Shown one piece after another: positions 5,901-27,343 of a DNA stretch of 64,000 bases (the first letter of the stretch is position 1; each line of letters starts with the position of its first letter). The notes beneath the pieces are model-generated. The model did no database searches. It saw nothing but the letters and a program-made list of their open reading frames with translations, and was not told where the DNA came from. The position numbers were made by a program, and so were the translations under genes. The DNA is taken from the NCBI RefSeq assembly GCF_056746865.1, contig NZ_CM163382.1; one strand, 5' to 3'.

Positions 5901-8900
5901 ATTTGCCCGGTAACCAATAAAATCCTGGATACGGCTTTTAAAGGCTTAACCCCTTATCTGCCTACCCATATTTCGTTCGAGCATCTTACCCTGGCGCAAT
6001 ATGACACTTTTGTCGCGCAGAAAGTCACAATGCCGGAAATCTGGAAGCTGGATCGTTCACAGGAAGACTACGCAGAGGGTCTGGCAAAAGCACGCGACTG
6101 GGTCAGCCATGATCCGCTGATCGCACAATTGCGGTCGGAAAACGTCTGGACAGACATTAACGATCGTGTCGTGGAAGGCGGCTTCTACTATCGTACTGCC
6201 GAGCACTCTGCCCAGCAGTCGTCAGAACGTCTGCAAAGCTATGAAAAGATGTTCAAGAATGGGCAACTAAATGTTCTCAACTGTTCCACCACCATGGAAA
6301 TGGGGGTTGATATCGGGGGTATTACTGCGGTGGTAATGAACAACGTACCGCCACATCCGGCCAACTATTTACAGCGCGCCGGGCGAGCCGGGCGTAGTAA
6401 AGAATCACGCGCGATCTCTTACACCCTATGTAAAGGTAACCCACACGACCAGCAGGTTTTTGCCAACCCGCTCTGGCCATTTGAAACCATGATCCCGGCA
6501 CCCATGGTCGCGATGAACTCCGCCCGACTGGTGCAACGTCACGTCAATGCATTATTACTGTCCGACTTTTTATGTAACGTTATTGGCGAAACCGATAAAG
6601 AAAAAACCAGCCTCGATAGCCTCTGGTTTTTCGGTGAAGATGACGGGCAGTCAAAATGCGAACGCTTTAAAATCTGGCTGGAACGTCCGGTTCTTGATAT
6701 CGACACGGCGCTGGAACGGCTGGTGAAAGGTACGGCGTTGCATGGTGCAAGAGCCGAATATCTGCGGGATAAAACAATCAACGCGATCACCTTCCTGCAA
6801 CAGCGGTGGCTCTCCGTTTATCGCGATCTCGTGACACAGGAGCGTGAGTCGCAGCCGCAAACGCCTTATCGTAAGCGCATAGAGCTGGAGAAGAAACGGC
6901 ACTGTGGCGAGTATCTGCTGCGCGATCTGGCTGCCAGAACCTTCCTGCCGGGATACGGTTTCCCGACAGATGTAGTGACGTTTGATAACTTCACGATGGA
7001 AGATTATATCCGCGAAAAATCGCAGAAAAGTCGTGATAAAAAGGACCGTGAAGATAACGTTTCCCGTTATAAAGGATTACCTTCCCGTAACCTCGGTGTT
7101 GCCATTCGTGAATATGCACCGGGAGCAGAGATCATCCTTGATGGCCGTGTCTTCCGCTCTGCCGGTGTCTCACTGCACTGGCACAACATTAATGCTGATA
7201 CCAATGAAGCCCAGCGTCTGGATTGCGCCTGGCGCTGTCACAAATGCGGGACCATTGGCTATGAAGAGGGGATGAGCAGTTCCGGGATGCTCTTTTGCTC
7301 CAATAGCGCCTGCGGCGAAAAAATAATCATGGATAATCGCCGTCAGGTGCTGCAGCCTGCCGGGTTTGTCACCGATGCACACGCTCCGGTAACGAACAAT
7401 ATTGAAACCATGAAATTCGTCCCGGTTGTCCCCGCGTGGGTCTTTGTTAAAGCAGAGCCCGTACCGTTGCCTAACCCGCTAATGGGTTATATGGCTTCTG
7501 GGGCTGATGGGCATGTTTTCCAGCAAAGTTTGGGGGAAGGTGGACACGGTTATGCATTGTGTCTGAGCTGTGGCCGTGCTGAGTCGATGCTGAATGAAAA
7601 TGATGCGCCGAAAAGTATGGAAGCTCACTATCCACCGCGTCCGGGTAAAGCGGATCGCGACAGCCAGAATCATCGTCTGATTTGCCCCGGTTCGACGGCA
7701 CTCATGAAGAATGTCACCCTGGGCGCACTGGCGCGTACCGATGTCTTTGAAATGGTTCTGCGCAAACCGCAAAACGGCGAGTATCTGCCAGATAACACAG
7801 AGGAGGGGCGGATTGTTGCCATGACTCTGGCGGTTGCTCTGCGTCAGGCGCTGGCGGGCGTTCTGGGTATCTCCGCCGCAGAACTCGGCTATTCTGTACG
7901 TCCGGTCAGACTGGAGGATGGGCAATCGGTATTAGCCGTACAGCTTTATGATGTGATCAGCGGTGGTGCAGGTTTTGCCTCCAGCGCACCGGTACACATT
8001 GAAGCTATATTGCAGGGAATGGTGAAACAGTTAGGCTGCCGCCATTGTGAGACTGCATGTAGTGAATGCCTGCTTGATTCCCAGACTCGCCACGATCACG
8101 ATTTGCTGGATCGCAAAGCGGCGCTGGCCTGGCTTGGCGATGACTTCACGTATTACATCGGTTTACCGGATGAAGAGACATTCTCGCTGCCGGATGCCCG
8201 CTACTGCCCTGGCGCCATTGGCGATACGATTCGCCGGGCGATTAACGAAGGCGCTGAAAAGCTCACCCTGTGGATGACCGGCGCGCCCAATGAGTGGGAT
8301 TTATACGCACGTCAGTTCCGCGCGGCGGTTCAGAACTATCGGCTAAAAGACAACGTCGAGGTCGATCTTGTTATTCCTACGGGAGTGGATGACCCGGACC
8401 TGTTGCATGAACTATCGCAATTTACTGCGCTGGGTGTGCGGCTGTGCCATGTTGAACAGGATCTGCAATTACCGATCGTTGCCCAGGTCACCTTTACCGA
8501 TCGCGTGATGACGCTGGCCTCTCGCAGCCAGCAGGCAACGATTCCGGGGCCGGAGTGGCACCTGAATGACGAACTGGTGGTGCGTAGTCTCGGTTATAAA
8601 ACGGTAGAACTGAACGAGTTTATTCTGCCGGCTAAAGCCACCAACGCTGTCGAGCGGGTCAAAGACATTCAGATCCACAAACAGTTGAATGGACCACTGT
8701 CGCAGTTTGGGCAACGCTTCTGGGACGTGCTGTTTAACGACCATGAAGAAGCGCAGTCACTGATGAATAACACGCGAATTACCGGCGTTCACTATACCGA
8801 TCGCTATCTGCAAAACCCGGTTGCGCTGGCGTTGTTGGGATCAATTCTGAGACCGCTAAAAACAAAGCTGACCGATGGCGCTGAAGTGACGCTGGATACG

Positions 8901-9284
8901 CTATTTAAAGATAAAGATCGCCCCGGTAACCGGCCTTTCCATGACTGGATGAGCATAGCGGATTTTCAGGATTTCGCTGATCAGTGGTTTGCTGCTGCGC
9001 TGGGCAGGCCGGTAGAACTGACGGTGTTCGACTCGCCGCGCGATATCCCTCACCATCGTAAACTGACGGTGACTTTTGAGGATGGTCAGGTATTGAAGAT
9101 CCGCTTCGATCAGGGGATGGGCTACTGGCGCATCAACTTTTCATCGCAATGGCATTACTTTGATTTCCGCGATGACGTTTCTTTCCAGTTAGTCAAAATG
9201 GCTCAGGCCTGCAAGGAAGGGAATGTCGCCAACAGCGAAGAGAGTTGGGCAACGGATGTGCTGGTGGAGGTGATCGCCTCCTGA
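2940..9284 (+). CDS. Giant (2114 aa) DEAH-box superfamily-2 helicase with C-terminal Cys-rich Zn-ribbon (DUF1998/MrfA-like) region; candidate DruE-like defense helicase
   Basis: Walker A GTGSGKT (aa 126-132, nt 3315-3335), DEAH box VLDEAH (aa 264-267, nt 3729-3740), SAT motif, helicase C-domain motif QRAGRAGR (nt ~6372-6395), Cys clusters [31 protein letters not shown] (nt ~7220-8075); starts 13 nt after gene 1 stop behind aaggaataagg RBS. Confidence 0.85.
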
Positions 9285-9290
9285 TGATGA

Positions 9291-9325
9291 GCCGCTCCCG
9301 ATGTGGTGTCGGGAGCGGTATTTTC
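9291..9325. terminator. Bidirectional rho-independent terminator between the convergent helicase gene and mcrC
   Basis: Stem ccgctcccg / cgggagcgg with 9-nt loop followed by T-run, in the 56-bp gap between two convergent stops. Confidence 0.6.
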
Positions 9326-9340
9326 TATAAAACTTACCGC

Positions 9341-10387
9341 TTATTTGAGATATTCATCGAAAATGTCGAGTAATTCTTGATGTATACACGGCCATTCCTG
9401 ACCTAAATTGACGGTACACAAGCCAATATCGAAGCCATTAATTTTATAACGATGTTTCACTGCGGTATCTACGTGGGGATATATTAATAATCCCCCTATG
9501 TTTTCGCCATTTTCAGGCTTTAACGACCATAAGTAATTCATCAGTTGATAAAGATTTTGCGAATGAAATTTTTCTGTTCCCATTCGTCGTGAAAAAATGC
9601 TCTTATAGTATTTGGCGTCAACGATAAGTATTTTTTCTGATGAGCGAATGGTGATGTCAGTTTCCATTCGAGGTAACAAATTAAGTGACTGATCCGATAT
9701 ACTCGATGCATCCCATTTTAAATAAGAGCGGGTTGTGTTTGCAGACGTTAATTCACGACGGCAAAATTCATAAAGAAACTTTTGATAAAGTAATGACATC
9801 TCTTTTTCGTTTCTTTCAAAATCATAGAAACGGTAGTGTCCTTTGTTTTGACCTGGAATAGAATTATTGACGATGAATTTGCAGACACTGATAACGAATT
9901 TATAATAACGCGTATTTTTTCCGCCATTCAGATAGCTGAAATGCTGCGGAGTTAAATGAAGAGTGCTAATGCCCGGTAATTTTCTATAAAGTGAACGAGC
10001 TTCATCTCTGATAGTTGAATTTAACTTTTCATGCTTAATTAATATGGCTAATGTGCTTTTTATAATTCGGTTAGCCAGCGTGTCTTCATTAAGCATATCA
10101 AAAGTACTGACGGTTTTCCCATGATTAAGATGGAAGCCGCGTATTGTTTTAGCAAACTCTATTCGCCCTTTGATGCCAGGAATGATCTCGGTATTAGGAT
10201 TGTAATCAAGCTCAAGCCCTCGGCGTGAAAGCTGTAAAACCCCTTTATTTAATACATACCCCAGGATATCAAGAAGATTGTTACCGGGTATGGCTTCAAG
10301 GTTTGCCTGCTTAATTTCCTGTAAATAACCCCATGCATAGGTAAGCATGTAATAGATATTACGGACAGGTATCACGGGCTGTTCCAC
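9341..10387 (-). CDS. mcrC: McrC, specificity/nuclease subunit of the McrBC modification-dependent (type IV) restriction system
   Basis: Translation matches McrC as I recall it (..EQPVIPVRNIYYMLTYAWGYLQEIK..); start taken as GTG at 10387, overlapping the mcrB stop by 1 nt; AT-rich gene. Confidence 0.9.
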   Translation of the reverse strand: MEQPVIPVRNIYYMLTYAWGYLQEIKQANLEAIPGNNLLDILGYVLNKGVLQLSRRGLELDYNPNTEIIPGIKGRIEFAKTIRGFHLNHGKTVSTFDMLNEDTLANRIIKSTLAILIKHEKLNSTIRDEARSLYRKLPGISTLHLTPQHFSYLNGGKNTRYYKFVISVCKFIVNNSIPGQNKGHYRFYDFERNEKEMSLLYQKFLYEFCRRELTSANTTRSYLKWDASSISDQSLNLLPRMETDITIRSSEKILIVDAKYYKSIFSRRMGTEKFHSQNLYQLMNYLWSLKPENGENIGGLLIYPHVDTAVKHRYKINGFDIGLCTVNLGQEWPCIHQELLDIFDEYLK

Positions 10388-11766
10388 TATGAGTCCCCTA
10401 ATAATTTGTTGGTCCATTTCTGTTGTTTATAGGGGTCATCAAAGAAATATTCTTCGAGTAAAGGGGCGATATCCGTCATCACAATTTCATTAAGCCATTG
10501 CGTATCCGGAGAGGTGCCATCTTCCAACCCACAGCAGAAGTAACTATGCCCAATGCGGAATCCTTTCCCAAGGATAGTGGCCTCTTTGCTGATTTCCTGG
10601 TTCAACTCGTTCATTTTTTGGCATAAAGACTCAACAAATGAAGGTTCTGCTTTTTTATTCAGTAAAAAATTCCGGAACTGTGGTGTATCAAAACCTGGCT
10701 CAATATCTATGAAAGAAAATCGTCTGCGTAGGGCATAGTCAACAACGGCCAGAGAGCGATCGGCAGTATTCATTAAACCGATGATATAAACATTCTCCGG
10801 GACATAGAATCGTTCTTCATCGTTTTCGGAGTAGGTTAGGGGAACAGACCAGTTTTCACCTCGTTTATCATGTTCCATTAACATCATCACTTCGCCAAAT
10901 ACTTTACTGAGATTGGCACGATTGATTTCATCTATAATAAAAATATACTTTTTCTCTGGCTGCTCTTTAGCTTGCTGACAAAAATTGTAAAATATGCCGT
11001 CTTTACGTCGGAAGCCGACGCCATTCGGACGATAGCCCTGTATAAAATCCTCATAGCTATAGGATTGATGGAACTGAACCATATTGACGCGTTGCGGAGC
11101 CTTTTCTCCTGTCAGCAAGTAAGCCAGACGGCGTGCAACAAAGGTTTTTCCAACGCCGGGCGGCCCCTGGAGGATAATATTTTTTTTGATGGTTAATCGT
11201 TTGAGTATCGTCTCTATTGTGGTTTCAGGGATAAACAAATCATTTAACGCATCTTCCAGACAGTATGATTCAGTTTTTGACATAGGTGGAATAACACTCT
11301 TGCCAGAATTAAATATTAATTTATAGTCGTTGATTATGTTGTCCAGCATAGAGGCAAATCGGGTGTAATCAATACCCTGTGAGACTTTTTGGGAACAGGC
11401 GTAATAGGACTGTCCGTATTTTTTAGGATATACACCCGAAGTTGCCTGAAAATACTCTGCGATTGTTTTAGGTATGTCTGAAGAGAACTGCCATTGGGCA
11501 TGTGGTTCATTCGTGTCGCTTATACCATAAGCCAAAACCAACTCATCAAAATCTTTATAATAGAGAATAACGGGATATATACCGTTAGAAGCTTCCTGAC
11601 CTTCTCCAAGAAATGCAAACCAGGGAATAGACGTAAAATTACCATAACCGAAACTCAATTTTACTCGCAGGTTACGGTAAGACGTTGGATAATCTTTAGT
11701 GGATTGCGAACGTTGTTGCTGTGCTTGCTTAATAAATTTTTCAATCCAGGGTTGAATAGATTCCAT
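10387..11766 (-). CDS. mcrB: McrB, GTP-binding 5-methylcytosine-DNA recognition subunit (AAA+)
   Basis: Translation MESIQPWIEKFIKQAQQQRS.. with Walker A GPPGVGKT; start at the 7th codon of the track ORF (459 aa). Confidence 0.9.
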   Translation of the reverse strand: MESIQPWIEKFIKQAQQQRSQSTKDYPTSYRNLRVKLSFGYGNFTSIPWFAFLGEGQEASNGIYPVILYYKDFDELVLAYGISDTNEPHAQWQFSSDIPKTIAEYFQATSGVYPKKYGQSYYACSQKVSQGIDYTRFASMLDNIINDYKLIFNSGKSVIPPMSKTESYCLEDALNDLFIPETTIETILKRLTIKKNIILQGPPGVGKTFVARRLAYLLTGEKAPQRVNMVQFHQSYSYEDFIQGYRPNGVGFRRKDGIFYNFCQQAKEQPEKKYIFIIDEINRANLSKVFGEVMMLMEHDKRGENWSVPLTYSENDEERFYVPENVYIIGLMNTADRSLAVVDYALRRRFSFIDIEPGFDTPQFRNFLLNKKAEPSFVESLCQKMNELNQEISKEATILGKGFRIGHSYFCCGLEDGTSPDTQWLNEIVMTDIAPLLEEYFFDDPYKQQKWTNKLLGDS

Positions 11767-11927
11767 AAGATATGCCTTCCTCATTGCTAAGCCTCTATTA
11801 TCGCTTTCGCAACGTACTGAAACAATAGATTTTTACTGCAAAATCAGACTGGTAAATATTTACTGAGGGGGAAAGTTTCTATTGAGTCAGTGGAAGGCTC
11901 CCGGTGGTTAACCGGGAGTAAACGCTG

Positions 11928-12269
11928 TTACGCGACTTTCTGTTTACCGGCAATCACTCCAATAAACGCCTGCACCTGCTTTTGTTTACGCGCCGACAGT
12001 TTGCACACCTGGCGTAGCGACTGCATCAGTTCGCTCTCCTCGGCGGCGGGTGGTTGGGCGGTGAGGACAATACAGCCTTCCATCACTTTGACATCTACCG
12101 CCGTGCCAGTGGCAAAACCGGCGGCTTCCAGCCACTGACCTTTCAGGGTGATGGCGGGAATACGGCTGTAATCCGGGTAGCGACTCGCATAACCGACGGT
12201 GACATGACGGTTATTTGCCGGGGAGACTTCTGCTTCGAACGGTTGTGCAATAGAATGCGTGTCAGTCAT
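11928..12269 (-). CDS. symE: SymE, SOS-induced type I toxin (AbrB-fold RNA endonuclease-like)
   Basis: Translation [34 protein letters not shown].. (113 aa) inside the 132-aa track ORF. Confidence 0.85.
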
Positions 12270-12340
12270 AACTGCTATTCTCCAGGAATAGTGATTGTGA
12301 TTAGCGATGCGGGTGTGTTGGCGCACATCCGCACCGCGCT
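12255..12340 (+). ncRNA. symR: SymR antisense sRNA (antitoxin of symE), approximate position
   Basis: Established knowledge: SymR is encoded antisense to the symE 5-prime UTR and start codon; ends not determinable from sequence alone. Confidence 0.4.
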
Positions 12341-12342
12341 AA

Positions 12343-12362
12343 ATACCTGTATATATCATCAG
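12343..12362 (-). promoter_or_regulatory. Putative LexA operator (SOS box) in the symE promoter
   Basis: tacCTGTatatatcaTCAGta on + strand, CTGA-N8-ACAG on the symE strand, 7/8 match to the CTGT-N8-ACAG core. Confidence 0.45.
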
Positions 12363-12496
12363 TAAATATGGGGAAAGTCCAGCTAAAAATAGAATAAAAT
12401 GGGCAATTTCTGGAATGATTTAAATATATTTATGTGGGTTATGATTGGCGTGAAATAATAAAAAGCGCACCGGAAAGGTGCGCCAGAAAATAATGT

Positions 12497-13891
12497 TCAG
12501 GATTTTTTACGTGAGGCTTTTTTACCCCCGCTAGCTGCGCGTTCAGCTTTGATTTTTTCCAGCAACGCGGCGGCGCTGTTTTCTCCGCTGATCAAATCCG
12601 GGTTTTCGGCCCGCCACTGGGCGGTAAGTTCACCACGGAACGCTTTTGCCAGGATGGATTGCGTCAGGTTGTTGACGCGGGCTAAGGCGTTGTTGACCTG
12701 TTTTTCTATGGTGTCGGCGTAGGCGAAGAGTTGCTCGACGCGGCGAACGATTTCGGCTTGTTCTTTTACTGGAGGTAATAAAACAACTTGGGATTTGATA
12801 TCTTTTCCTGAAATACCTTTTTGACCAGAAGTTGTTTTCACGCAGTTCATCATTGCATTTCGTGCTGAGGGGGATGAAAAAAATATTTCGATATATTCTG
12901 GTAAAGCATCTTTGGTTAATCGAGCTCGAATAAGTTTATCAGGATATAGCAAATTTTGATGTTGTAATTTTTTCAATAACCCACAAACACCAACAAATTC
13001 TAAACTTCCGTTATAGCGAGTAAATAAAAGATCTCCATCTTGTAATTTGTGGCGGTTTAGTTCACTTTCTGAACATTCTAGAAACCGAATATCGTTTTGA
13101 TCTACATGGCCAGCACGTACAGAACTAATGCGTAGTATTGGATGACCAACACCACTTTCATTTGGCTTTGATGAAAGACCATTACGTAATTCAGTTAAGA
13201 TAGATTCAAAATTTAACTTCTTAAATACAGAATGTTGCGGCTCAAAATTACGCCATTTTTCTGTCAATTTTCCATTAACTGCGCCCCCCAATACCGCTTG
13301 ACGAAAACGTTTCAGGATTTGTGGGATTTGCTCAAAACGTGCTTTGGTGCTGTCTACCTGCGCCAGCAGCGTATCGAGTTTTTCAGCGATGATTTTTTGT
13401 TCGGCAAGTGGTGGGATTGGTATATTTATCAAATCAAAGCTTGCCGGCTTAATATTATTAATATTTGCACCAGCAGAAAGTGATGAAATTTTGTTTCGAT
13501 AAAGAGAAGATTTTGTGAAATGAGCAATAAAACCAGAAAATATAAGTTTTTCAGGACGTAATACACCGCAAAATGCGCCGAAACTACATTCAAATGGTAG
13601 ATGCTGATGTGCGGATTTACCAACTACGGATTTGCTCCCTGATGACATTGCAATAACAATATCTTCAGGAGATATTTTTTGATTTTCTTTAACAAGATTT
13701 TTAGGAACAAAAACCAAGTCCGTAGTATCAAACTTGCCATTCTGAATATTGTTCGCACGGATAAGAGGCAAATAATCATCTTTTAGATAATTTATTGCCT
13801 GCTCTTTTTTATACGTTACTCCTCGGATTAGAGTTGTGACCGTAGATACTGGGGCGATAACCCACCCCTCCGGCAATTTCCCCGCACTCAT
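12497..13891 (-). CDS. hsdS: HsdS, type I restriction-modification specificity subunit (EcoKI family)
   Basis: 464-aa translation MSAGKLPEGWVIAPVSTVTTLIRG..; AT-rich target-recognition regions; stop overlaps hsdM. Confidence 0.9.
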   Translation of the reverse strand: MSAGKLPEGWVIAPVSTVTTLIRGVTYKKEQAINYLKDDYLPLIRANNIQNGKFDTTDLVFVPKNLVKENQKISPEDIVIAMSSGSKSVVGKSAHQHLPFECSFGAFCGVLRPEKLIFSGFIAHFTKSSLYRNKISSLSAGANINNIKPASFDLINIPIPPLAEQKIIAEKLDTLLAQVDSTKARFEQIPQILKRFRQAVLGGAVNGKLTEKWRNFEPQHSVFKKLNFESILTELRNGLSSKPNESGVGHPILRISSVRAGHVDQNDIRFLECSESELNRHKLQDGDLLFTRYNGSLEFVGVCGLLKKLQHQNLLYPDKLIRARLTKDALPEYIEIFFSSPSARNAMMNCVKTTSGQKGISGKDIKSQVVLLPPVKEQAEIVRRVEQLFAYADTIEKQVNNALARVNNLTQSILAKAFRGELTAQWRAENPDLISGENSAAALLEKIKAERAASGGKKASRKKS

Positions 13892-15477
13892 TCCTTCACC
13901 CCACCAAACGCTTCTTCCAGCAACTGACGCTGCAAATCGGCCTCATCGCTCGCCCCCAGTTCACGCATCAGCGCATCCAGTTCAGACAGCGCCTGTACCA
14001 GTTCGCCCATCGCTTCTGCCGCTAATACATCCGGCTCCGGCAGGCTGTCGGCATCAATACTGTCTTTATCTTTCAGCCAGGAGATATCCAGCGAATCGGA
14101 TTTTGCGGTGCGGATCCACTCACGGCTGAACTTGCGCCAGCGGCTGGTAGCAAGATGCTGGTCGGTGTTTTTGTTCTCTTCGCTGTCGGCAACTTCCGTC
14201 TCTTCGGCGTTAAAACTCCATTCACCTTCAGTGCGCGGGCTTAAACCGTGCGGGTCTTCGCCATACACGCGCTCAAACGGCTGCAAATGCTCGTCGGTAA
14301 ACGGTGTGCGCTTGCCGAAACTCGGCATATTGGTACGCAGGTCATACACCCACACGTCGTCGGTGCAGTTCTTATCCTGATGCGGGTTCGCCACTGTGCC
14401 TTTGGTAAAGAACAGCACGTTGGTCTTCACGCCCTGCGCGTAAAAAATACCGGTCGGCAGACGCAGAATGGTGTGCAGATGACACTTATCCATCAGGTCA
14501 CGACGGATGTCGGTGCCTTTGCCGCCTTCAAACAACACGTTATCTGGCACCACCACCGCCGCACGACCGCCGGGATGCAGCGTTTCGATAATATGCTGCA
14601 TAAAGCACAGCTGTTTGTTGCTGGTCGGGTGAACAAAGGTGCGGGTAATGTTGGTGCCTGCGGCGCTGCCAAACGGCGGGTTAGTGGCGACAATATGCGC
14701 CTTCGGCAGGTTTTCACCGTCGCTGCCCAGGGTGTTGCCCAGACGGATTGCGCCGCCGTGGTCGAGGTTGCCTTCAATATCGTGCAGCAGGCAGTTCATC
14801 AGTGCCAGACGACGGGTGCCGGGCACCAGTTCGAGGCCGATAAACGCGCGGTGGATCTGGAAATCCTGCGTGTCGCCATCAAGGTCGTCCAGATCATTGG
14901 TTTGCGACTTAACATAGCGGTCGGCTTCAATCAAAAAGCCCGCCGTACCTGCCGCCGGGTCCTGCACCACTTCACGCGGCTGCGGTTTCAGCAGATGAAT
15001 AATGGTTTTAATCAGCGGACGCGGGGTGAAGTACTGGCCTGCACCAGACTTGGTTTCATTCGCGTTCTTCTGCAACAGCCCTTCGTACATATCGCCGAAG
15101 TCATCGCGCGACTTACCGTGCGCGCCGTTGTACCAGTCCAGCGAATCCATATTGCTGACCAGTGCGGTTATTTGTTTCGGCTCGGTGATGGTGGTACTAA
15201 CATTATGAAAAACTGCCTGTACCAGCTTTTTGTCATCTTCGCCTAAATGCACGAGCATTTTTCGGTAGAACTGCAACTGCTCCTGGCCGATGCGGGATTT
15301 CAGGTCATCCCAGCGGTAACCTTCCGGCAGGTATTCCGCTTCCTGACCGGTCTCTTTACACATTTTCAAAAACAGCAGCGAGGCGAGTTCATTGACGTAG
15401 TTTTGATAGGAAACGCCGCCATCGCGCAGGTTGTCGCACAGCTTCCACAGCTTCGCGACCAGATCGTTATTGTTCAT
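13888..15477 (-). CDS. hsdM: HsdM, type I R-M N6-adenine DNA methyltransferase
   Basis: 529-aa translation with NPPF catalytic motif (..HIVATNPPFGSAAG..) and AdoMet-binding region; 4-nt overlap with hsdS. Confidence 0.92.
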   Translation of the reverse strand: MNNNDLVAKLWKLCDNLRDGGVSYQNYVNELASLLFLKMCKETGQEAEYLPEGYRWDDLKSRIGQEQLQFYRKMLVHLGEDDKKLVQAVFHNVSTTITEPKQITALVSNMDSLDWYNGAHGKSRDDFGDMYEGLLQKNANETKSGAGQYFTPRPLIKTIIHLLKPQPREVVQDPAAGTAGFLIEADRYVKSQTNDLDDLDGDTQDFQIHRAFIGLELVPGTRRLALMNCLLHDIEGNLDHGGAIRLGNTLGSDGENLPKAHIVATNPPFGSAAGTNITRTFVHPTSNKQLCFMQHIIETLHPGGRAAVVVPDNVLFEGGKGTDIRRDLMDKCHLHTILRLPTGIFYAQGVKTNVLFFTKGTVANPHQDKNCTDDVWVYDLRTNMPSFGKRTPFTDEHLQPFERVYGEDPHGLSPRTEGEWSFNAEETEVADSEENKNTDQHLATSRWRKFSREWIRTAKSDSLDISWLKDKDSIDADSLPEPDVLAAEAMGELVQALSELDALMRELGASDEADLQRQLLEEAFGGVKE

Positions 15478-15567
15478 TGTGAGTTCCGTAAATTAAGCAG
15501 CGGCCCAAATTCATCGAGCCGCAGAAGAAGAAATTGCCGAGGGTAATATACACAAAATCATTCAGGT

Positions 15568-15662
15568 TGCATCAAGGCGGCAAGTGAGTGAATCCCCGGG
15601 AGCGTACAGAAGTACGTGACCGGGGTGAACGAGCGCAGCCAACGCAGAGGCAGCCTGAAGGA
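15568..15662. repeat. ERIC (IRU)-like intergenic repeat between hsdM and hsdR
   Basis: Contains AAGTGAGTGAATCCCCGGGAGCGTACAGAAGTACGTGACCGGGGTGAACGAGCG, close to the ERIC core GTGAATCCCCAGGAGCTTACAT..GGGGTGAGCG. Confidence 0.65.
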
Positions 15663-15677
15663 TGAAGTGTATACGTG

Positions 15678-18600
15678 TCAGGCCAGCTCGTCCCAGATAT
15701 AATCGCTGAATTTGCCCAGCAGGGTATCGAGATTATCGTCAAAGGTTCTTTGCAGCATCGCCTTCCCGCCGCGACGGTGGAAGTTGCCGGTTTTGAAGAC
15801 ATCGTCGTCGAGCACCACTTTCTCTTTCAGCGCCTGCGCTAAACGATCGAGCCAGCTTAATTGCTCGCTGCTCCAGTCGTTTTCGCCCTTAATGCGCGTC
15901 AGCGCGTGATCGACACGTTCCTCAAACGGTTTCAGCGCATCGCCCACCGCAGCGCGGCGAATATGACCAATCAGCCGGGCGGCGATATCTTCATTGCGCG
16001 TCTCTTTCCATGCTTTGCGCAGGGAAGATTCCTCAAAGTGCTGGCGGTCAAACCACTCCTGTAGCTCGACCAGCCCTTTACGGGTGAGATCGCGCGGGCG
16101 ATTAATAACTGCCTGCAATGCCGGTTGCGCGTTCGGGGAACGTTGCACCAGCGAGTCAAAGGCTTCGAGGAAATCCTGCGGCGTGTCGTAATCACCGTAC
16201 AGCGATTTTACACTCACCACTTCATCGTCGATATCGAGGAAGATCGGCGCATCATTCAGGTTGTTGATGTCCGTTTTCAGCTTTTCCAGACGGGCGATAA
16301 AGCCAGGCAGTTTGTTAAAGACTTCGGCGCTCCAGTGCGGCCCTTTTTCCCGCAGGCGCGAGGCGAAGCCGTTAAAGCCCACCCCCGCCGCGTCCTGGCA
16401 TAGCTCATCCAGACGACGCACCTGTTTATCTATCGTTTCGCTGCGGTCACGGTTAAACGTGGCCAGGCCGATGATGCGCTGGAGCTTCGCCACCAGTTGT
16501 TCATGGCTGTGCTCGGCAAAACTGCGGCCATCCGCTTCGGTGATTTTATAGGTTTCTGAATCGGTAATTTCGTTGACCAGCGTTTGCAGCTCCACCTTAG
16601 GACGCACCACCACCGGACGCATGGTGTCGACGCTCTCCAGCGTGCTGTATATATCGACGCAGTCGAAAATCTTAAAGCTGGTTTTATTCACGTCCGGGCA
16701 CAAGCGCGTGGCGCGGCCTTTCATCTGCTCGTACAGAATACGGCTGCGTACTTTACGCAGGAACACGATGTTACAGATCGACGGAATATCGACGCCGGTC
16801 GTCAGCAGGTCGACGGTTACCACAATATTGGGCAGCCGCTCTTTATTGAAGCGGGTGATCATGGTCTGCACTTTGCGCGCGTCTTTATCGGCATCACCGG
16901 TGATCTTGATTATCGCGTCGTGCTCCAGTTGCGGATACTTTTTCTTGAACGCGGTACGCAACTCTTCCACCACCATATCGGCATGGGCATTGGTGACGCA
17001 GAAGACCAGCGTTTTTTGCGACCCGGTCGGGTCAAGGTAGTTGGTGAGTTCGTTACAGACGGCGCGGTTAAACGCCGGGATCACCAGGCCACGGTTAAAG
17101 TCGGCGACCTCAAAATCCTGATCGTCTTCCAGGGTGTCGTTGATTACTTCCCCCTGCGGGCTGATGCGCTCTACCTGTTCGCCTTTGGAGAGATAAACAC
17201 CCTCCTGTGCGTTGCGGGTGGTGATCTGAATTGGTGGATCCTGGTCGATCAGAAAACCGTCGATAACCGCGGTACGGTAGGTATAACGGTAAACCGGCTC
17301 GCCGAAAATCTGCACCGTATGCAACGCCGGGGTGGCGGTGAGGGCGATTTTTATCGCATCGAAGTGATCGAGAATGCGACGGTAGGCAGAGACATAATCC
17401 AGCTGGCTGCGGAACTGTAGTTCGCCTTCGGTCTGCTCTTTATCGAGAATATAGCCGCGATGCGCTTCATCGACGACGATACAGTCGTAACGGGCCACCG
17501 GCATCGGTTCATCTGATTGCAGGGTGCGTTTCACCAGCGACTGTACGGTGGCAACGTGAATTTTGGTGCTGTCTTCCGGGAATTTATCCGTCAGCCCTTT
17601 AATGTCGAAAATGCTGTTGAAGGTGTCGCCGTTAATACGCGTATCTTCAAACGCCCCCAGCGCCTGCTCGCCAAGAGAACGGCGATCCACAAGGAAGAGA
17701 ATGCGTTTAAAACGCTGGGACTGGATCAGGCGGAACATCATGGCAATTGCGGTGCGGGTTTTACCGGTACCGGTCGCCATCGCCAGCAGGATCTCTTGTT
17801 GACCCTTGACGATTGCCTTTTCCACCGCGCGGACGGCATCTTCCTGATAATAACGCAGGCCCAGCTCGCTCATGCCGGGATTATCGGCAAACCACTGATT
17901 CTGTTTTTGCGGTTCGCTGCCGAGCATTTCCAGCAGCTCTTCCGGGCGATGCCACTCGGGTAAGGCTTTCGACATATTGCGGGTATCACGCACGTCGCGA
18001 TACCAGATGCCACTTTTAGTCTTCATTGCTGCGCGGTATTCGCGCCCGTTGGTGGAGTAGCAGAAGGGGATTTTAAACCGTTGTTGGCCGCTGGAGTCCT
18101 GCCAGCTAGTTTCATACTCCGGCACCGCTTCATGCACTTCATCCGGTGAGTAGTGCTCAAGCAAGGTTTCCCGCAGGAAGCCATTATCGAAGCATTTACT
18201 GTAGCGATACGACTCATTGAGCTTGCCGGGAACGTCGATATTTTTACGTTTCGCCTCTACCACCGCGATGGGTTTGAGGCCGACAAACAGCACATAATCC
18301 GCAAAGCCCTGTTTACCCGTTTCATCTTTCCCGGTCGGCCATTCGGCAATGGCTTTATTGACGCCGGGTTCCGGGCGCGCGCCTTTGGAGAAGCGCAGGG
18401 TTTTGCTATCGGCCTGCCAGCCTGCTTTACGCAGTTGCGCATCAATCAGGAAGCGGCTCTCTTCTTCGCTAAGGTTGAGTGTGCGCTTGATGGCCTGATC
18501 GGTAATTTCTTTGTGGTAAGCCTTACGTTCCTGTTCAGTCTGTTTGGCCAGTTCCGCGTTCTTCTCGGCGAGCTGTGCTTCCAGCGCCGCAAGGCGAGCC

Positions 18601-19190
18601 TGGGTTTGCGCTTCTGTTTCCTGCTGTTTGCCTTCCAGAATAGCGATATAGCCGTTCAGGGCAACCAGCTTCTGCTGTTGCGCTTCGACTTCTGCCTGAG
18701 TCTGCGCTTTTTCTCGCACCTGCTGTTCAAGCTGTTGTTTTAGCGTCAGCACTTCCTGGTGATAGAGGTTCTCGCCACGTTCTGGTAACACAAACACCGG
18801 CACCGGGAAGTCATAATCTTTAGTGACCAGACGGTAGTACCAGACAGCCAGGCGGAACCCGAGTCGCAGGCACATCTGGGCATCGTCGAGATCGTTGTGA
18901 TATTCGTGCACCGCCTGGTTACCAATGCGGCGTAATTTGTGAAATACAGAGAGAATGTTGTCATCAACGAAGGCGATTTTGCCGAGTTCGCGCAGGAGAT
19001 CGTGTTGATTCTCACAAGGGGGGATGTTGAGTAACAGACCAAGATGTTTCGCTGTGGCTTCGCCAAACATACGCATTTTAATTAGCGTCGTGTTGGGATC
19101 ATCCGGGTAGTTATTTTCCGCCGCACAGGCGATGGCATAAGTGAAGTCGTTGACGCCCTTCAGGAATTCGAAGTTGGATTTATTCATCAT
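15678..19190 (-). CDS. hsdR: HsdR, type I R-M restriction endonuclease/translocase subunit
   Basis: 1170-aa translation with DEAD-like helicase motifs (AMATGTGKT, VVDEAH) and N-terminal nuclease region. Confidence 0.92.
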   Translation of the reverse strand: MMNKSNFEFLKGVNDFTYAIACAAENNYPDDPNTTLIKMRMFGEATAKHLGLLLNIPPCENQHDLLRELGKIAFVDDNILSVFHKLRRIGNQAVHEYHNDLDDAQMCLRLGFRLAVWYYRLVTKDYDFPVPVFVLPERGENLYHQEVLTLKQQLEQQVREKAQTQAEVEAQQQKLVALNGYIAILEGKQQETEAQTQARLAALEAQLAEKNAELAKQTEQERKAYHKEITDQAIKRTLNLSEEESRFLIDAQLRKAGWQADSKTLRFSKGARPEPGVNKAIAEWPTGKDETGKQGFADYVLFVGLKPIAVVEAKRKNIDVPGKLNESYRYSKCFDNGFLRETLLEHYSPDEVHEAVPEYETSWQDSSGQQRFKIPFCYSTNGREYRAAMKTKSGIWYRDVRDTRNMSKALPEWHRPEELLEMLGSEPQKQNQWFADNPGMSELGLRYYQEDAVRAVEKAIVKGQQEILLAMATGTGKTRTAIAMMFRLIQSQRFKRILFLVDRRSLGEQALGAFEDTRINGDTFNSIFDIKGLTDKFPEDSTKIHVATVQSLVKRTLQSDEPMPVARYDCIVVDEAHRGYILDKEQTEGELQFRSQLDYVSAYRRILDHFDAIKIALTATPALHTVQIFGEPVYRYTYRTAVIDGFLIDQDPPIQITTRNAQEGVYLSKGEQVERISPQGEVINDTLEDDQDFEVADFNRGLVIPAFNRAVCNELTNYLDPTGSQKTLVFCVTNAHADMVVEELRTAFKKKYPQLEHDAIIKITGDADKDARKVQTMITRFNKERLPNIVVTVDLLTTGVDIPSICNIVFLRKVRSRILYEQMKGRATRLCPDVNKTSFKIFDCVDIYSTLESVDTMRPVVVRPKVELQTLVNEITDSETYKITEADGRSFAEHSHEQLVAKLQRIIGLATFNRDRSETIDKQVRRLDELCQDAAGVGFNGFASRLREKGPHWSAEVFNKLPGFIARLEKLKTDINNLNDAPIFLDIDDEVVSVKSLYGDYDTPQDFLEAFDSLVQRSPNAQPALQAVINRPRDLTRKGLVELQEWFDRQHFEESSLRKAWKETRNEDIAARLIGHIRRAAVGDALKPFEERVDHALTRIKGENDWSSEQLSWLDRLAQALKEKVVLDDDVFKTGNFHRRGGKAMLQRTFDDNLDTLLGKFSDYIWDELA

Positions 19191-19377
19191 TGTTATTAAT
19201 CCATTGCTGTGTGGGCCTGTCCAAATATTTAAGGCCCATAACGTCTTATCTTAGCTTTCTGTACCTTTCCGGACAATGACCGGAGTCACAGCAACTGACT
19301 CATTTCTAACGTGTTCGTCTATTTTGGTAGTGTTATAGTAGCCGAAAAACATCTACCTGATTCTGCAAGGATGTACT

Positions 19378-20292
19378 ATGACGGTTCCTACCTATGACAA
19401 ATTTATTGAACCTGTTCTGCGTTATCTGGCGACAAAACCGGAAGGTGCAGCCGCGCGTGATGTTCATGAGGCTGCCGCGGATGCATTAGGACTGGATGAC
19501 AGCCAGCGAGCGAAAGTCATTACCAGCGGACAACTTGTTTATAAAAATCGTGCAGGCTGGGCACATGACCGTTTAAAACGTGCCGGGTTGTCGCAAAGTT
19601 TGTCGCGTGGCAAATGGTGCCTGACTCCTGCGGGTTTTGACTGGGTTGCGTCTCATCCCCAGCCAATGACGGAGCAGGAGACGAACCATCTGGCCTTCGA
19701 TTTTGTGAATGTCAAACTTAAGTCACGGCCGGATGCCGTCGATTTAGATCCGAAAGCCGACTCTCCCGATCATGAAGAACTAGCAAAGAGCAGCCCGGAC
19801 GATCGGTTAGATCAGGCGCTAAAAGAGCTTCGTGATGCGGTGGCTGATGAGGTTCTGGAAAACTTATTGCAGGTTTCTCCTTCGCGCTTTGAAGTCATTG
19901 TTCTGGATGTTTTGCATCGCCTGGGGTATGGCGGCCACCGTGATGATTTGCAGCGTGTTGGCGGTACTGGAGATGGTGGCATCGATGGTGTGATATCGCT
20001 TGATAAACTTGGCCTGGAGAAAGTTTATGTTCAGGCAAAACGTTGGCAGAACACTGTAGGCAGGCCAGAATTACAGGCATTTTACGGCGCACTGGCTGGG
20101 CAAAAGGCGAAACGTGGGGTGTTTATTACCACTTCTGGATTTACGTCTCAGGCGCGTGACTTTGCTCAATCCGTCGAGGGTATGGTGTTGGTTGATGGGG
20201 AACGCCTGGTGCACTTAATGATCGAAAACGAAGTAGGGGTTTCTTCACGTTTGTTGAAGGTGCCGAAACTGGATATGGACTATTTTGAGTGA
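19378..20292 (+). CDS. mrr: Mrr, modified-DNA (methyladenine/methylcytosine) restriction endonuclease (type IV)
   Basis: 304-aa translation MTVPTYDKFIEPVLRYLATKPEGAAARDV..; divergent from hsdR. Confidence 0.9.
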   Translation: MTVPTYDKFIEPVLRYLATKPEGAAARDVHEAAADALGLDDSQRAKVITSGQLVYKNRAGWAHDRLKRAGLSQSLSRGKWCLTPAGFDWVASHPQPMTEQETNHLAFDFVNVKLKSRPDAVDLDPKADSPDHEELAKSSPDDRLDQALKELRDAVADEVLENLLQVSPSRFEVIVLDVLHRLGYGGHRDDLQRVGGTGDGGIDGVISLDKLGLEKVYVQAKRWQNTVGRPELQAFYGALAGQKAKRGVFITTSGFTSQARDFAQSVEGMVLVDGERLVHLMIENEVGVSSRLLKVPKLDMDYFE

Positions 20293-20295
20293 AAT

Positions 20296-20335
20296 ATCAG
20301 GCCGGATGCGGCTGCGCCTTATCCGGCCCATAACC
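20296..20335. repeat. REP element between convergent mrr and yjiA
   Basis: gccggatgcggctgcgccttatccggcc palindromic REP consensus. Confidence 0.7.
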
Positions 20336-20337
20336 CC

Positions 20338-21294
20338 TTACTTCCTCAACCCCGCAAACGCCGCCCGAATCTCATCCTCCGGCAACTGAATCCCGATAAA
20401 CACCATCGTGCTATGCGGTTTTTCATCGCCCCACGGTCTGTCCCAGTCGGCGCTGTAGAGGCGCTGGACGCCCTGGAACAGCAGGCGGTTAGCTTCGCCG
20501 TCAATCCACAGCATCCCTTTGTAACGCAGCAGTTTATCCGCCGATTCCAGCAGCAGGTTTTCCATCACGCGGGAAACTTCGCTGATATCTACCGGGTAAT
20601 CCAGTTCCACCACAATCGACGAAATATCGTTTTGTTTATCCGCGATAAAGTGGAAACGCGGTTTGGTGCTGACGACGTTCTCTTCCAGCATAAAACCGTT
20701 GGTGTTGAACAGCAGGCCCAGGTCGATGTCGCCGTGGGTAACGGTGTAGACCGGTGCACGGGCGTTGATGCGCGCCAGGCGTTCGCGCAGTTTTTCTGCT
20801 TCGCCTGCGACGTCGGTTTTAGTCAGCAGAATACGGTCGGCGTAGCCAACCTGTGACTGGGCGATGGTGAACTGGTTCATCTGCTCATCGGCATGTACCG
20901 CATCCACCAGCGCAATCACGCCGTCCAGCAGGTAACGCTGGCATAAAATCTCATGGGAGAAAAAGGTCTGAATAATCGGGCCGGGATCGGCCATGCCGGT
21001 GCATTCAATGACCAGACGGTCGAACTGAATATTGCCCTTGTCGAGATTATCCAGCAGGTCGAGTAGCGCGTCCTCCAGCTCGTTGGAGCGCGAACAGCAG
21101 ATGCAGCCGTTGGTCAGCGTTTTGATCTGCGTGGCGCGGTCACCAATCAGTTGATCATCAACGGAGACTTCGCCGAATTCGTTTTCAATCACGGCAATCT
21201 TGTAGCCGTGTTGTTCGTTAAGAATATGGCGCAGCAGGGTGGTTTTGCCCGCGCCTAAAAAACCGGTGAGTAGGGTAACTGCAATCGGGTTCAT
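20338..21294 (-). CDS. yjiA: YjiA, COG0523-family P-loop GTPase (metal chaperone-like)
   Basis: Translation MNPIAVTLLTGFLGAGKTTLLRHILNEQHGYKIAVIENEFGE.. (318 aa from the internal Met of the 346-aa track ORF). Confidence 0.85.
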   Translation of the reverse strand: MNPIAVTLLTGFLGAGKTTLLRHILNEQHGYKIAVIENEFGEVSVDDQLIGDRATQIKTLTNGCICCSRSNELEDALLDLLDNLDKGNIQFDRLVIECTGMADPGPIIQTFFSHEILCQRYLLDGVIALVDAVHADEQMNQFTIAQSQVGYADRILLTKTDVAGEAEKLRERLARINARAPVYTVTHGDIDLGLLFNTNGFMLEENVVSTKPRFHFIADKQNDISSIVVELDYPVDISEVSRVMENLLLESADKLLRYKGMLWIDGEANRLLFQGVQRLYSADWDRPWGDEKPHSTMVFIGIQLPEDEIRAAFAGLRK

Positions 21295-21304
21295 GCTCTC
21301 TCCA

Positions 21305-21508
21305 TTAACAACAGCGCATACCGCCTTTACCATCGCCGCCGTAGCGCGCGTTCTGGCGTTCGCGGAAGAATTCTTCATAGCTCATGTACGGCTTGTCGGG
21401 ATGGTTGGTCTTCATATGCTCGACGTAGTTGTCGTAGTCTGGAATGCCAATCAACATCTTCGCCGCCTGGCCGAGATATTTTTTTGCCTGTCCTAAGTTA
21501 CCAAACAT
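21305..21508 (-). CDS. yjiX: YjiX, small conserved protein (67 aa) co-transcribed with yjiA
   Basis: 67-aa [51 protein letters not shown].. immediately upstream of yjiA. Confidence 0.8.
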
Positions 21509-23743: not shown

Positions 23744-23830
23744 TTACAGGTGCGGCAGCTGCGTTCGTTCACCTCTGACACTTACTGTTGTAAGCTCCCG
23801 GGGATTCACTCACTTGCTGCCTTCCTGCAA
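23744..23830. repeat. ERIC (IRU)-like repeat in the btsT leader, inverted relative to the copy at 15568-15662
   Basis: GCTCCCGGGGATTCACTCACTTGC is the exact reverse complement of the core at 15574-15597; about 85 percent identity over ~80 bp. Confidence 0.65.
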
Positions 23831-24100: not shown

Positions 24101-24613
24101 TTAAATCGCAGCTTCCATTTCCAGCATCACCGGATGGAAACGGCGTTTAAAGTAGATAAGTCCGTGACCTTCTGCACTGAGGATGATGTTTTTAATCTCC
24201 ACCAGATACACCAGATGTGTGCCAATTGCCTGCACATCGCGGATCTCACCTTCAAGACTGGCCAGCGAACCTTTTAGCACCGGCTGCGCCAGCGGACCTT
24301 TTTGCCAGCATGAGAGGCTAAAACGCTCTTCCATCGCCATGCCTGTCATGCCCGCGAAGTGGCGTGCCATCAGTTCCTGCTCATGGTTGAGGACGTTGAC
24401 GCACAACTTGCCGTTGCCCTGAAAAACCGGGTTCATCGCACTGTTGGCGTTAATGCACACCATCAGCGACGGTGGTGTATCCGTGACCGAGCAGACAGCC
24501 GTTGCCGTAATCCCGCATTGTCCGGTGTCGCCCTCGGTGGTGATAATATTTACCGCTGCCGACAGGCTGGCCATCGCGTCACGAAAGCGCAGGCGTTGTT
24601 CATCTAATTGCAT
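24101..24613 (-). CDS. hpaC: HpaC, NAD(P)H-flavin oxidoreductase component of 4-hydroxyphenylacetate 3-monooxygenase
   Basis: 170-aa translation; position immediately after hpaB; flavin reductase family. Confidence 0.85.
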   Translation of the reverse strand: MQLDEQRLRFRDAMASLSAAVNIITTEGDTGQCGITATAVCSVTDTPPSLMVCINANSAMNPVFQGNGKLCVNVLNHEQELMARHFAGMTGMAMEERFSLSCWQKGPLAQPVLKGSLASLEGEIRDVQAIGTHLVYLVEIKNIILSAEGHGLIYFKRRFHPVMLEMEAAI

Positions 24614-24630
24614 CTTAACCTCCTGCTGCG

Positions 24631-26193
24631 TTATTTCAGCAGCTTATCCAGCATGTTGATATCGTCGTTGTTGTGCAGGTGCGGCACAGTCCAGCCGTTC
24701 TGGTCGTATTCCGACAGGCAGCGATCAACCATCGCCATCATCTTGTCCATATTGCCGGAGCTTTGTGCCTGGCGCAGACACTGCAGGCGAATCTCATCCT
24801 GGCTACCGGAGTAGTTGATTTCATACAGTTCGTGGCGACCACCAAACTCGCTGCCAATGGCGTCCCACATCAGTTTGAGGATCTTGATGCGCTGGACGTG
24901 ATCCATACCATTCGAACCGCGCACATACTTCGCCAGATACTGGTCGATCTGCGGATTGTTCAGGTCACGGGCACTGGAAGGGAGGTAGATCAGGCCACTG
25001 GTAACGTTGCGTTCGATAATGTTTTTGATCTTCGCGTAGGCCATTGGTGCCAGTACGCGATAGGTTTGCAGTGCGGCATGATCCGGTAAATAAGCCCCGT
25101 TGACCCACGGCGTCGCTTCAGAACACATCGAGTCACTCAATGCCCAGAAGGTGTTGCGCCACGCCACCACTTCACCGAGATCGGCCTGCACACCACGGAA
25201 CTCCAGGGTGCCGGTACATTCGAGTGATTTTTTCAGCAGTGCCGTAATGAAGTCGAGTTTCACTGCCAGGCGCACACAGGCTTGCAGCGGATACATACGG
25301 GCAAAACCGCCTTCCATCGTCCAGCGACGGCAGCGATCAAAATCGCGGTAGATCAGCACGTTTTCCCATGGGATCAGCACGTTATCCATCACCAGAATCG
25401 CATCATTCTCATCGAAGCGGCTGGAGAGCGGGTAGTCATACGGTGAGCCGGTAGCACCCGCGACCATCTCATAAGAGGCGCGGGAGATTAATTTCACGCC
25501 ATCAGCATCCATTGGCGCAACGAACATCAGCGCGAAGTCCGGGTTTTCGCCCATTACTTGTGCCGAGCCGAAGCCAACCATGTTGTAGTGAGTCAGCGCC
25601 GAGTTGGTGGCAACCACTTTCGCACCGCTAACGATAATCCCGGCGTCAGTCTCTTTTTCCAGCTTGATGTAAACGTCTTTCACTTTATCGGTCGGCAAAT
25701 GACGATCGATCGGTGGGTTAACAATCGCGTGGTTAAAGTAGAGGCCAGTTTCCTGAATACGGGTATACCAGTTACGGGCGTTCTGCTCGAACTGACCGTA
25801 AAAGCCCGGATTCGCGCCCAGTGCGCAACCGAAAGCAGCTTTGTAGTCTGGGGTACGGCCCATCCAGCCATAGCTCAGGCGTGACCACTCAGCGATGGCG
25901 TCGCGTTGCTGGCGCAGGTCGTCGGCACTTTTCGCCACGCGGAAGAATTTATGGGTATAGCCGCCGCTGCCGGTGTCGGTGTTCCAACACAGAGAGTCCT
26001 GCATCTCCGGTTTGTGCAGCGCGTCGTACAGTTGGGCAACAGACGCTGCCGCATTACGAAATGCCGGATGAGTAGTGACGTCTTTCACTCGCTCGCCATA
26101 GATATAGATCTCGCGACCATCCTGCAGGCTTTTCAGATACTCTTCCCCGGTGAACGGACGTTGGGTACTGGCGCGGAAATCTTCTGGTTTCAT
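24631..26193 (-). CDS. hpaB: HpaB, 4-hydroxyphenylacetate 3-monooxygenase oxygenase component
   Basis: 520-aa translation MKPEDFRASTQRPFTGEEYLKSLQDGREIYIYGERVKDVTTHPAFRNAAASV.. Confidence 0.9.
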   Translation of the reverse strand: MKPEDFRASTQRPFTGEEYLKSLQDGREIYIYGERVKDVTTHPAFRNAAASVAQLYDALHKPEMQDSLCWNTDTGSGGYTHKFFRVAKSADDLRQQRDAIAEWSRLSYGWMGRTPDYKAAFGCALGANPGFYGQFEQNARNWYTRIQETGLYFNHAIVNPPIDRHLPTDKVKDVYIKLEKETDAGIIVSGAKVVATNSALTHYNMVGFGSAQVMGENPDFALMFVAPMDADGVKLISRASYEMVAGATGSPYDYPLSSRFDENDAILVMDNVLIPWENVLIYRDFDRCRRWTMEGGFARMYPLQACVRLAVKLDFITALLKKSLECTGTLEFRGVQADLGEVVAWRNTFWALSDSMCSEATPWVNGAYLPDHAALQTYRVLAPMAYAKIKNIIERNVTSGLIYLPSSARDLNNPQIDQYLAKYVRGSNGMDHVQRIKILKLMWDAIGSEFGGRHELYEINYSGSQDEIRLQCLRQAQSSGNMDKMMAMVDRCLSEYDQNGWTVPHLHNNDDINMLDKLLK

Positions 26194-27334: not shown

Positions 27335-27343
27335 CGTCGTTCC

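Follow-up and report, generated by a model that had tools for sequence, protein, structure and literature searches.

The window analyzed here, a stretch of 64,000 nucleotides from contig NZ_CM163382.1 of NCBI RefSeq assembly GCF_056746865.1, carries at positions 9341–20292 the genes mcrC, mcrB, symE/SymR, hsdS, hsdM, hsdR, and mrr, in the order in which they stand in the RefSeq annotation of Escherichia coli K-12 and of strain MSB1_8G. We are nearly certain that this segment corresponds to the Immigration Control Region of E. coli (ICR, defense hotspot 36) in its K-12-type allelic form, a fixed chromosomal site at which restriction systems are exchanged. An initial annotation, made from the sequence alone, had described a stacked defense island with McrBC, SymE/SymR, an EcoKI-family type I restriction-modification (R-M) system, and Mrr, and all of these identities hold when judged with NCBIfam, Pfam, PADLOC, and Rfam. 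Identities were assigned from NCBIfam equivalogs and from Pfam, PADLOC, Rfam, and PDB matches, coordinates were taken from the listing of open reading frames (ORFs), and window 9000–21500 was compared by megablast with 5,426 complete E. coli genomes. Identity over this segment was 100% with MSB1_8G and 98.8% with K-12 derivatives; all ICR proteins except Mrr passed their NCBIfam equivalog cut-off, and none of the analyses run produced evidence contradicting the ICR identification. The features of the region, in window coordinates, are as follows (GC, guanine-plus-cytosine content; TRD, target-recognition domain):

9291–9319, plus strand: terminator-like hairpin 3' of druE, a 13-pair stem followed by a T-run (terminator scan), kept in the strain without mcrBC; left edge of the mcrBC cassette
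9320–11931, minus strand: mcrBC cassette, 2.6 kb, 39.1% GC, bounded by the druE terminator and the symE stop codon; its presence varies between strains as one block
9341–10387, minus strand: mcrC, 348-aa nuclease subunit; NCBIfam McrC equivalog at 452 bits (cut-off 338), Pfam McrBC; identical to the K-12 protein
10387–11766, minus strand: mcrB, 459-aa methyl-cytosine-binding AAA+ GTPase subunit; NCBIfam McrB equivalog at 1106 bits (cut-off 637); identical to the K-12 protein
11928–12269, minus strand: symE, 113-aa SOS-induced toxin-like protein; NCBIfam SymE equivalog at 228 bits, Pfam SymE_toxin PF08845 at 78 bits; identical to K-12
12264–12340, plus strand: SymR cis-antisense RNA; Rfam RF01809 at 95.3 bits (gathering score 61), full length 1–77
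12347–12362, no strand assigned: LexA-box-like palindrome tACTGatgatatatACAGgt, a CTG-N10-CAG pattern match at the symE promoter
12497–13891, minus strand: hsdS, 464-aa EcoKI-type specificity subunit; NCBIfam equivalog at 808 bits, Pfam Methylase_S twice
12497–12768, minus strand: hsdS C-terminal conserved region, GC 0.537
12769–13252, minus strand: hsdS TRD2, GC 0.345
13253–13414, minus strand: hsdS central conserved region, GC 0.469
13415–13857, minus strand: hsdS TRD1, GC 0.348
13888–15477, minus strand: hsdM, 529-aa N6-adenine methyltransferase subunit; Pfam N6_Mtase at 317 bits and HsdM_N, PADLOC MTase_I at 767 bits
15678–19190, minus strand: hsdR, 1,170-aa type IA restriction subunit (nuclease plus superfamily 2 translocase); NCBIfam equivalog at 1741 bits, PADLOC REase_I at 2808 bits
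19378–20292, plus strand: mrr, methyl-dependent type IV restriction endonuclease of 304 aa; Pfam Mrr_N (73 bits) with Mrr_cat (135 bits), PADLOC mREase_IV at 577 bits
20338–21294, minus strand: yjiA, conserved GTPase, right anchor; NCBIfam equivalog at 682 bits

When compared with a K-12 strain, McrC, McrB, and SymE show no amino-acid differences, HsdS, HsdM, and Mrr show one each, and HsdR shows 13. McrBC is a type IV system in which the N-terminal domain of McrB binds 5-methyl- or 5-hydroxymethyl-cytosine, the AAA+ GTPase ring translocates DNA, and McrC cuts; given the identity of both subunits to the characterized K-12 enzyme, GTP-dependent cleavage of DNA with methylated cytosine would be expected of the pair. 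McrB contains the Pfam domains MrcB_N (residues 20–101) and AAA_5 (residues 196–350) and aligns with PDB entries 6UT6 and 7VSR over its full length, with 3SSC over the N-terminal domain, and with 6HZ4 over residues 162–459. The junction of the two genes, which on the minus strand reads GGGGACTCATAGTGGAACAG, bears out the earlier suggestion that mcrC begins at a GTG overlapping the mcrB stop codon by 1 nt: mcrB ends in TCA TAG (10389–10387 for the stop codon), the mcrC GTG runs from 10387, and a single G is shared. A Shine-Dalgarno sequence, AGGGGA, is located 6 nt upstream of this GTG; the alternative in-frame ATG (10417), 10 codons further upstream, has no such motif, and the RefSeq annotation gives the identical 1-nt overlap.

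Because strain PCP07083 joins druE to symE without mcrBC, the two genes being separated there by 42 nt, mcrBC can be regarded as a 2.6-kb block at ∼9320–11931. Homology to genomes lacking mcrBC stops at 9325–9328 and restarts at 11932. The mcrC gene converges on druE, and the terminator region is common to both. Two G+C-rich hairpins with similar stems (GCTCCCG...CGGGAG), at 9291–9319 and 11897–11918, stand on either side of the block, and the strain without mcrBC has one hairpin only at its druE/symE junction. Alternative cassettes each carry their own G+C-rich hairpin beside the symE 3' end; GmrSD cassettes have a different hairpin, placed at the same position by the symE stop codon. These junction hairpins might be sites of cassette exchange. 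Matches in the promoter and terminator scan were no more common than in shuffled sequence, and only the druE, hsdS, and hsdR-side hairpins were taken from it, as anatomical landmarks.

By established knowledge of this module, symE is repressed by LexA and has a toxin-like product, and the antisense RNA SymR blocks its translation. In the window, SymR overlaps the symE start codon (12269–12267) and 5' leader, and the LexA-box-like palindrome ACTGatgatatatACAG at 12347–12362, a match in sequence pattern only, lies directly upstream of the SymR-complementary leader. Its placement fits the published SOS control of symE, and the palindrome may have the role described in that work. In MSB1_8G, ISKox3 is inserted exactly at this palindrome (MSB1_8G locus 15427–16647), with an 8-nt target duplication at window 12351–12358. 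The probable result is that symE of that strain is separated from its promoter and no longer under SOS control.

EcoKI-type type IA R-M systems (HsdR2M2S1) methylate AAC(N6)GTGC, and an unmethylated site triggers ATP-driven translocation followed by cutting. HsdS of the window equals the EcoKI specificity protein in PDB 2Y7C at 463 of 464 residues, and the sole change, S70N (window 13683, hsdS codon 70), falls inside TRD1. We consider it unlikely that S70N alters EcoKI specificity, and on the strength of the literature the AAC(N6)GTGC specificity would be retained. The limits of the hsdS segments listed above are the points at which other type IA alleles cease to match; those alleles match only 12497–12768, 13253–13414, and from ∼13858 onward. 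The hsdM stop codon and the hsdS start codon overlap by 4 nt (ATGA), HsdM differs from its K-12 counterpart by N366H, and HsdR, which differs at 13 of its 1,170 residues, contains the Pfam domains HSDR_N, ResIII, Helicase_C, and EcoEI_R_C.

Mrr belongs to the type IV enzymes and cleaves DNA that is methylated. The protein in the window comprises an N-terminal winged-helix domain (Mrr_N) and a C-terminal nuclease domain (Mrr_cat) and differs from K-12 Mrr by A108D; it has no match in PDB or NCBIfam, and its identity is assigned because of Pfam, PADLOC, and near-identity to K-12. The right edge of variation is the yjiA stop codon, where homology with O157:H7 and CDE6306 restarts (20337/20338), and 5,383 of the 5,426 genomes match the yjiA end of the query. 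Beyond mrr the window continues with yjiA, yjiX, and btsT. On the other side, yjiR and yjiS lie upstream of druH in MSB1_8G and K-12, placing the left anchor outside the window. A REP-like palindrome (GCCGGATGCGGC...GCCTTATCCGGCC) at 20299–20336 fills the spacer between mrr and yjiA. A 16-nt direct repeat that seems to flank mrr (19233–19248 and 20325–20340) is accounted for in part by this palindrome, which its second copy overlaps, and was dismissed as chance.

The base composition of the region is clearly non-uniform, as both GC and codon usage indicate, and the initial annotation was right to describe mcrC, mcrB, and the target-recognition regions of hsdS as AT-rich by comparison with hsdM/hsdR and the flanking genes: GC, GC at third codon positions (GC3), and codon bias all agree. 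The GC of mcrC (0.372), mcrB (0.404), and hsdS (0.404) compares with 0.552 for hsdM, 0.542 for hsdR, 0.507 for mrr, 0.556 for symE, 0.548 for yjiA, and 0.525 for the remainder of the 64,000 nucleotides. Relative to 34 other genes of the window, GC3 z-scores were −3.9 for mcrC, −3.2 for mcrB, and −4.5 for hsdS, placing all three below every reference gene, whereas hsdM (+1.1) and hsdR (+0.8) were typical and mrr (−2.1) was intermediate. Karlin codon bias and GC3 taken together likewise put mcrC, mcrB, and hsdS outside the range of the reference genes, and none of 1,604 background segments of equal length was as AT-rich as the 2.6-kb mcrBC segment.

Horizontal exchange of cassettes is supported by this composition and by comparison across genomes. 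A different origin of the AT-richness would be constraint, at the protein level or through local function, acting on long-resident genes with no acquisition at all. Indeed, between K-12 and B the mcrBC alleles diverge by ∼3%, which is like core-genome divergence and implies long residence without drift to host composition, and GC at first and second codon positions is low as well, so that amino-acid composition contributes. We nevertheless find this account quite improbable, as GC3, a measure little affected by protein constraint, deviates the most (0.35–0.40 and 0.32 versus a mean of 0.60), the breaks in composition equal the boundaries of mcrBC presence and absence to within a few tens of bases and also match the homology limits between hsdS alleles, and mcrBC is found in only 11% of genomes, with GmrSD holding its slot in other strains. 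The first reading of AT-richness as consistent with horizontal acquisition is thus supported for mcrBC and the hsdS TRDs; AT-richness does not mark hsdMR, which is exchangeable at native GC and has given way as a whole to type IB systems in other strains, and symE/SymR belongs to the framework.

The units of the region differ in how many of the 5,426 genomes carry them:

whole ICR locus (at least 80% of window 9000–21500): 584 genomes
mcrBC: 581 genomes
EcoKI-type hsdS allele: 428 genomes
any part of hsdS (mostly conserved regions only): 925 genomes
type IA hsdMR: 927 genomes
mrr: 943 genomes
symE/SymR: 2,859 genomes
druHE, near full length: 231 genomes, 200 of these also with mcrBC

In E. coli, type IA hsdMR and mrr are thus each found in 17% of genomes and mcrBC in 11%, shares comparable in order of magnitude to the frequencies that a review of the locus gives for Enterobacteriaceae (type IA, 14%; Mrr, 22%; McrBC, 6%; PMC12707154). 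The segment from 11932 to ∼12400 (symE/SymR) is kept at 92–95% identity in O157:H7, CDE6306, and BCE049 whatever its neighbors, and 53% of genomes retain symE/SymR regardless of what flanks it; symE/SymR is a framework element and no cassette.

Seven differing contents were found between the shared anchors when strains were compared. In O157:H7 the site holds DUF262 plus GmrSD, symE, a type IB (EcoAI-family) hsdSMR, and DUF262 plus HNH, and in CDE6306 it holds symE, type I remnants, another restriction endonuclease, and BrnT/BrnA. BCE049 has GmrSD in the mcrBC slot and keeps the type IA hsd genes and mrr; GmrSD in place of McrBC has been described previously (PMC4437046). In a strain labelled C the framework is unchanged and the hsdS TRDs are different ones, MB50 has lost symE and most of hsdS beside the insertion sequence IS1, and GN25 has lost dru and most of mcrC, also beside IS1. 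Comparison across E. coli genomes, with seven other loci compared pairwise, thus mapped the cassette boundaries, as had been envisaged when the island was first described, and revealed units with differing frequencies and edges. It also bears on whether strains without ICR genes have merely deleted them from an ancestral K-12-type arrangement, with no exchange of cassettes. Deletion and decay do occur at this site, as seen in druH/druE of K-12, in the IS1-adjacent losses of MB50 and GN25, and in the type I remnants of CDE6306; however, deletion leaves no account of the unrelated genes that occupy the same slots in O157:H7, CDE6306, and BCE049 (GmrSD, type IB hsdSMR, DUF262/HNH, BrnTA, and another restriction endonuclease) or of the alternative TRDs set within an otherwise conserved hsdS framework, and for the locus as a whole we regard absence by deletion only as refuted. 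Neither of the two outcomes named at the start as speaking against the island, uniform composition and absence through deletion alone, was thus obtained.

The cassette-exchange reading also accommodates the distribution of single-nucleotide polymorphisms (SNPs) relative to K-12, of which there are 4 in 9000–14355, a patch of 13 in 14356–14731, and 0 in 14732–16377, followed by ∼2.8% divergence across 16378–21250. From this mosaic we conclude that recombination breakpoints lie inside hsdM and hsdR, and the pattern fits piecewise homologous exchange through conserved flanks, as the literature proposes for the region. The arrival of all five units in one event, as a single integrative mobile island, has almost nothing to recommend it beyond the contiguity of the units and the 584 genomes with at least 80% of window 9000–21500, since window 1–21300 contains no tRNA, integrase, transposase, or flanking direct or inverted att-like repeats, each unit has its own frequency and boundaries, the SNP mosaic indicates piecewise homologous exchange, and the ICR is described in the review as without the integrase known from hotspot 37 (PMC12707154). 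Searches with the defense genes (mcrBC, hsdS, mrr, druHE, and hsdMR) returned no plasmid copies; among the matches listed, plasmids accounted for 4 with window 9000–21500 and 1 with symE/SymR.

We thus favor a model of cassette exchange at the ICR in which a fixed site between yjiS on the left and the yjiA stop codon on the right holds combinations of restriction systems that vary by strain. Whole units would be swapped by homologous recombination in conserved flanks, with no integrase involved, and the flanks available for such exchange would be the druE terminator, the symE/SymR framework, the conserved parts of hsdS, hsdM and hsdR, and yjiA. The low GC of mcrBC and of both hsdS TRDs would then mark them, by composition, as having come from a broader pool of genes, and the ICR units, together with the adjacent Druantia type III genes (druH/druE), may jointly filter incoming phage and plasmid DNA. 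For both the recombination mechanism and the enzymatic activities, this model draws on the literature.

Several points weigh against it or narrow what can be read from the data. At the druE|symE site, insertion and deletion of mcrBC are indistinguishable without a phylogeny. The hsdM and hsdR genes are exchangeable and yet host-like in GC, and composition alone therefore fails to delimit the cassettes. Because S70N lies in TRD1, an unchanged HsdS specificity is an assumption. Finally, laboratory derivatives of K-12 are plentiful in the genome collection, and the counts given above for the K-12 allele are inflated as a result.

Upstream of the island the window begins with two further defense genes:

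1–2927, plus strand: druH (YjiT family), sensor-like Druantia III partner; PADLOC DruH3 at 1557 bits, NCBIfam YjiT_fam at 981 bits over profile positions 185–1090
2940–9284, plus strand: druE, 2,114-aa DEAD/DEAH helicase with an MrfA Zn-binding domain, Druantia III effector; PADLOC DruE3 at 2701 bits, Pfam DEAD, Helicase_C, and MZB

The "candidate system" that the initial annotation placed beside the island is, as judged by these model matches, Druantia type III, a known system. The two genes are adjacent, 12 nt apart, and both match the PADLOC models nearly end to end. The reading frame of druH runs off the left edge of the window (no stop codon in 3–320), and comparison with MSB1_8G puts its start ∼364 nt upstream of the window, leaving the first ∼120 codons outside; within the window the druH/druE pair apparently is intact. 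The yjiT/yjiV pseudogenes of K-12 are druH/druE with two deletions, corresponding to window 1146–4162 and ∼6316–8494. An IS3-family insertion is present in druH of MSB1_8G at window ∼278–283. DruH has been assigned to the YjiT family, with an E. coli representative in the ICR (PMC13192584). In the genome collection mcrBC nearly always has druE or its remnants beside it: among the 596 genomes with any mcrBC match, ∼10 are without any druHE match. That McrBC stands beside Druantia III for functional and not for historical reasons seems unlikely; if it did, cleavage by McrBC or EcoKI might yield DNA ends or single-stranded intermediates for DruE to engage. With Druantia III included, the count of five defense units in ∼21 kb can be reproduced (Druantia III, McrBC, SymE/SymR, type IA R-M, and Mrr, all within 1–20292), but a defense role of SymE/SymR is not established.

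One further element within the island is a passenger that lies outside the R-M system:

15547–15673, no strand assigned: ERIC/IRU-type repeat of 127 nt between hsdM and hsdR, with the ERIC core GTGAATCCCCGGGAGC...GTGACCGGGGTGAACGAGCG

Other copies of this element occur elsewhere, including a related copy at 23758–23830, downstream of btsT. PCP07083 is without it, and the hsdM-hsdR spacer there is 76 nt as compared to 200 nt in the window.

Outside the island, a cluster for 4-hydroxyphenylacetate catabolism (hpa) occupies ∼24101–34566 between btsT and tsr, whereas in K-12 btsT is followed directly by tsr; being missing from K-12, the cluster marks a second variable site near the ICR. The gene lgoT, for a major facilitator superfamily transporter (37110–38471, minus strand), has an in-frame stop at codon 279 (37635–37637) and is probably a pseudogene in the strain studied. 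The most AT-rich stretch outside the island, at 46470–47569 with GC down to 0.29, is intergenic and lies upstream of ORFs 47228–47953 and 47911–48588, and synteny with O157:H7 suggests that these ORFs are yjjQ and bglJ. The only tRNA genes in the window are a tandem array of three for tRNA-Leu(CAG) (49830–50152, minus strand), which has no connection with the island.

Detailed study of defense islands began with the ICR, its genes are among the best-characterized restriction systems, and commercial cloning strains carry a Δ(mrr-hsdRMS-mcrBC) deletion on account of them; the primary paper on cassette variation here is said to be that of Sibley and Raleigh from 2004. The region has thus been known for decades, and what we report is the correct identification of a textbook locus and nothing new. 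The discovery value is therefore small, and the value of the analysis lies in annotation: as far as sequence similarity can predict, the strain would restrict unmethylated AAC(N6)GTGC DNA as well as cytosine- or adenine-methylated DNA. Its apparently intact Druantia III, unlike that of K-12, is relevant to transforming the strain, to infecting it with phage, and to using K-12 as a Druantia-free background. In the literature the ICR has been placed between yjiS and yjiA (PMC3874153). The review cited above treats the locus as the ICR, or hotspot 36, with yjiA as a conserved anchor, and gives its repertoire as type IA, IB, and ID hsd families, Mrr, McrBC, and GmrSD, plus the toxin-antitoxin modules symE-symR, brnAT, and rpn (PMC12707154).

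The closest known counterpart is the ICR of K-12, which has the same gene order, orientation, and overlaps and the same anchors (yjiA on the right and, in the closest genome, yjiS on the left). The two differ in that druH/druE are deletion-scarred pseudogenes (yjiT/yjiV) in K-12 and apparently intact in the strain studied, and in the ∼2.8% divergence that starts inside hsdR and continues through mrr and yjiA. EcoKI itself has the same organization of hsdR, hsdM, and hsdS, including the 4-nt hsdM/hsdS overlap, and the strain studied departs from it by HsdS S70N, HsdM N366H, and the 13 HsdR substitutions. Other type IA alleles differ from the strain studied in their hsdS TRDs, and the E. coli B lineage (EcoBI) shares mcrBC at 97% identity. 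The ICR of O157:H7 occupies the same site, with the same symE/SymR framework and the same yjiA junction, but the contents of its type IV and type I slots are different.

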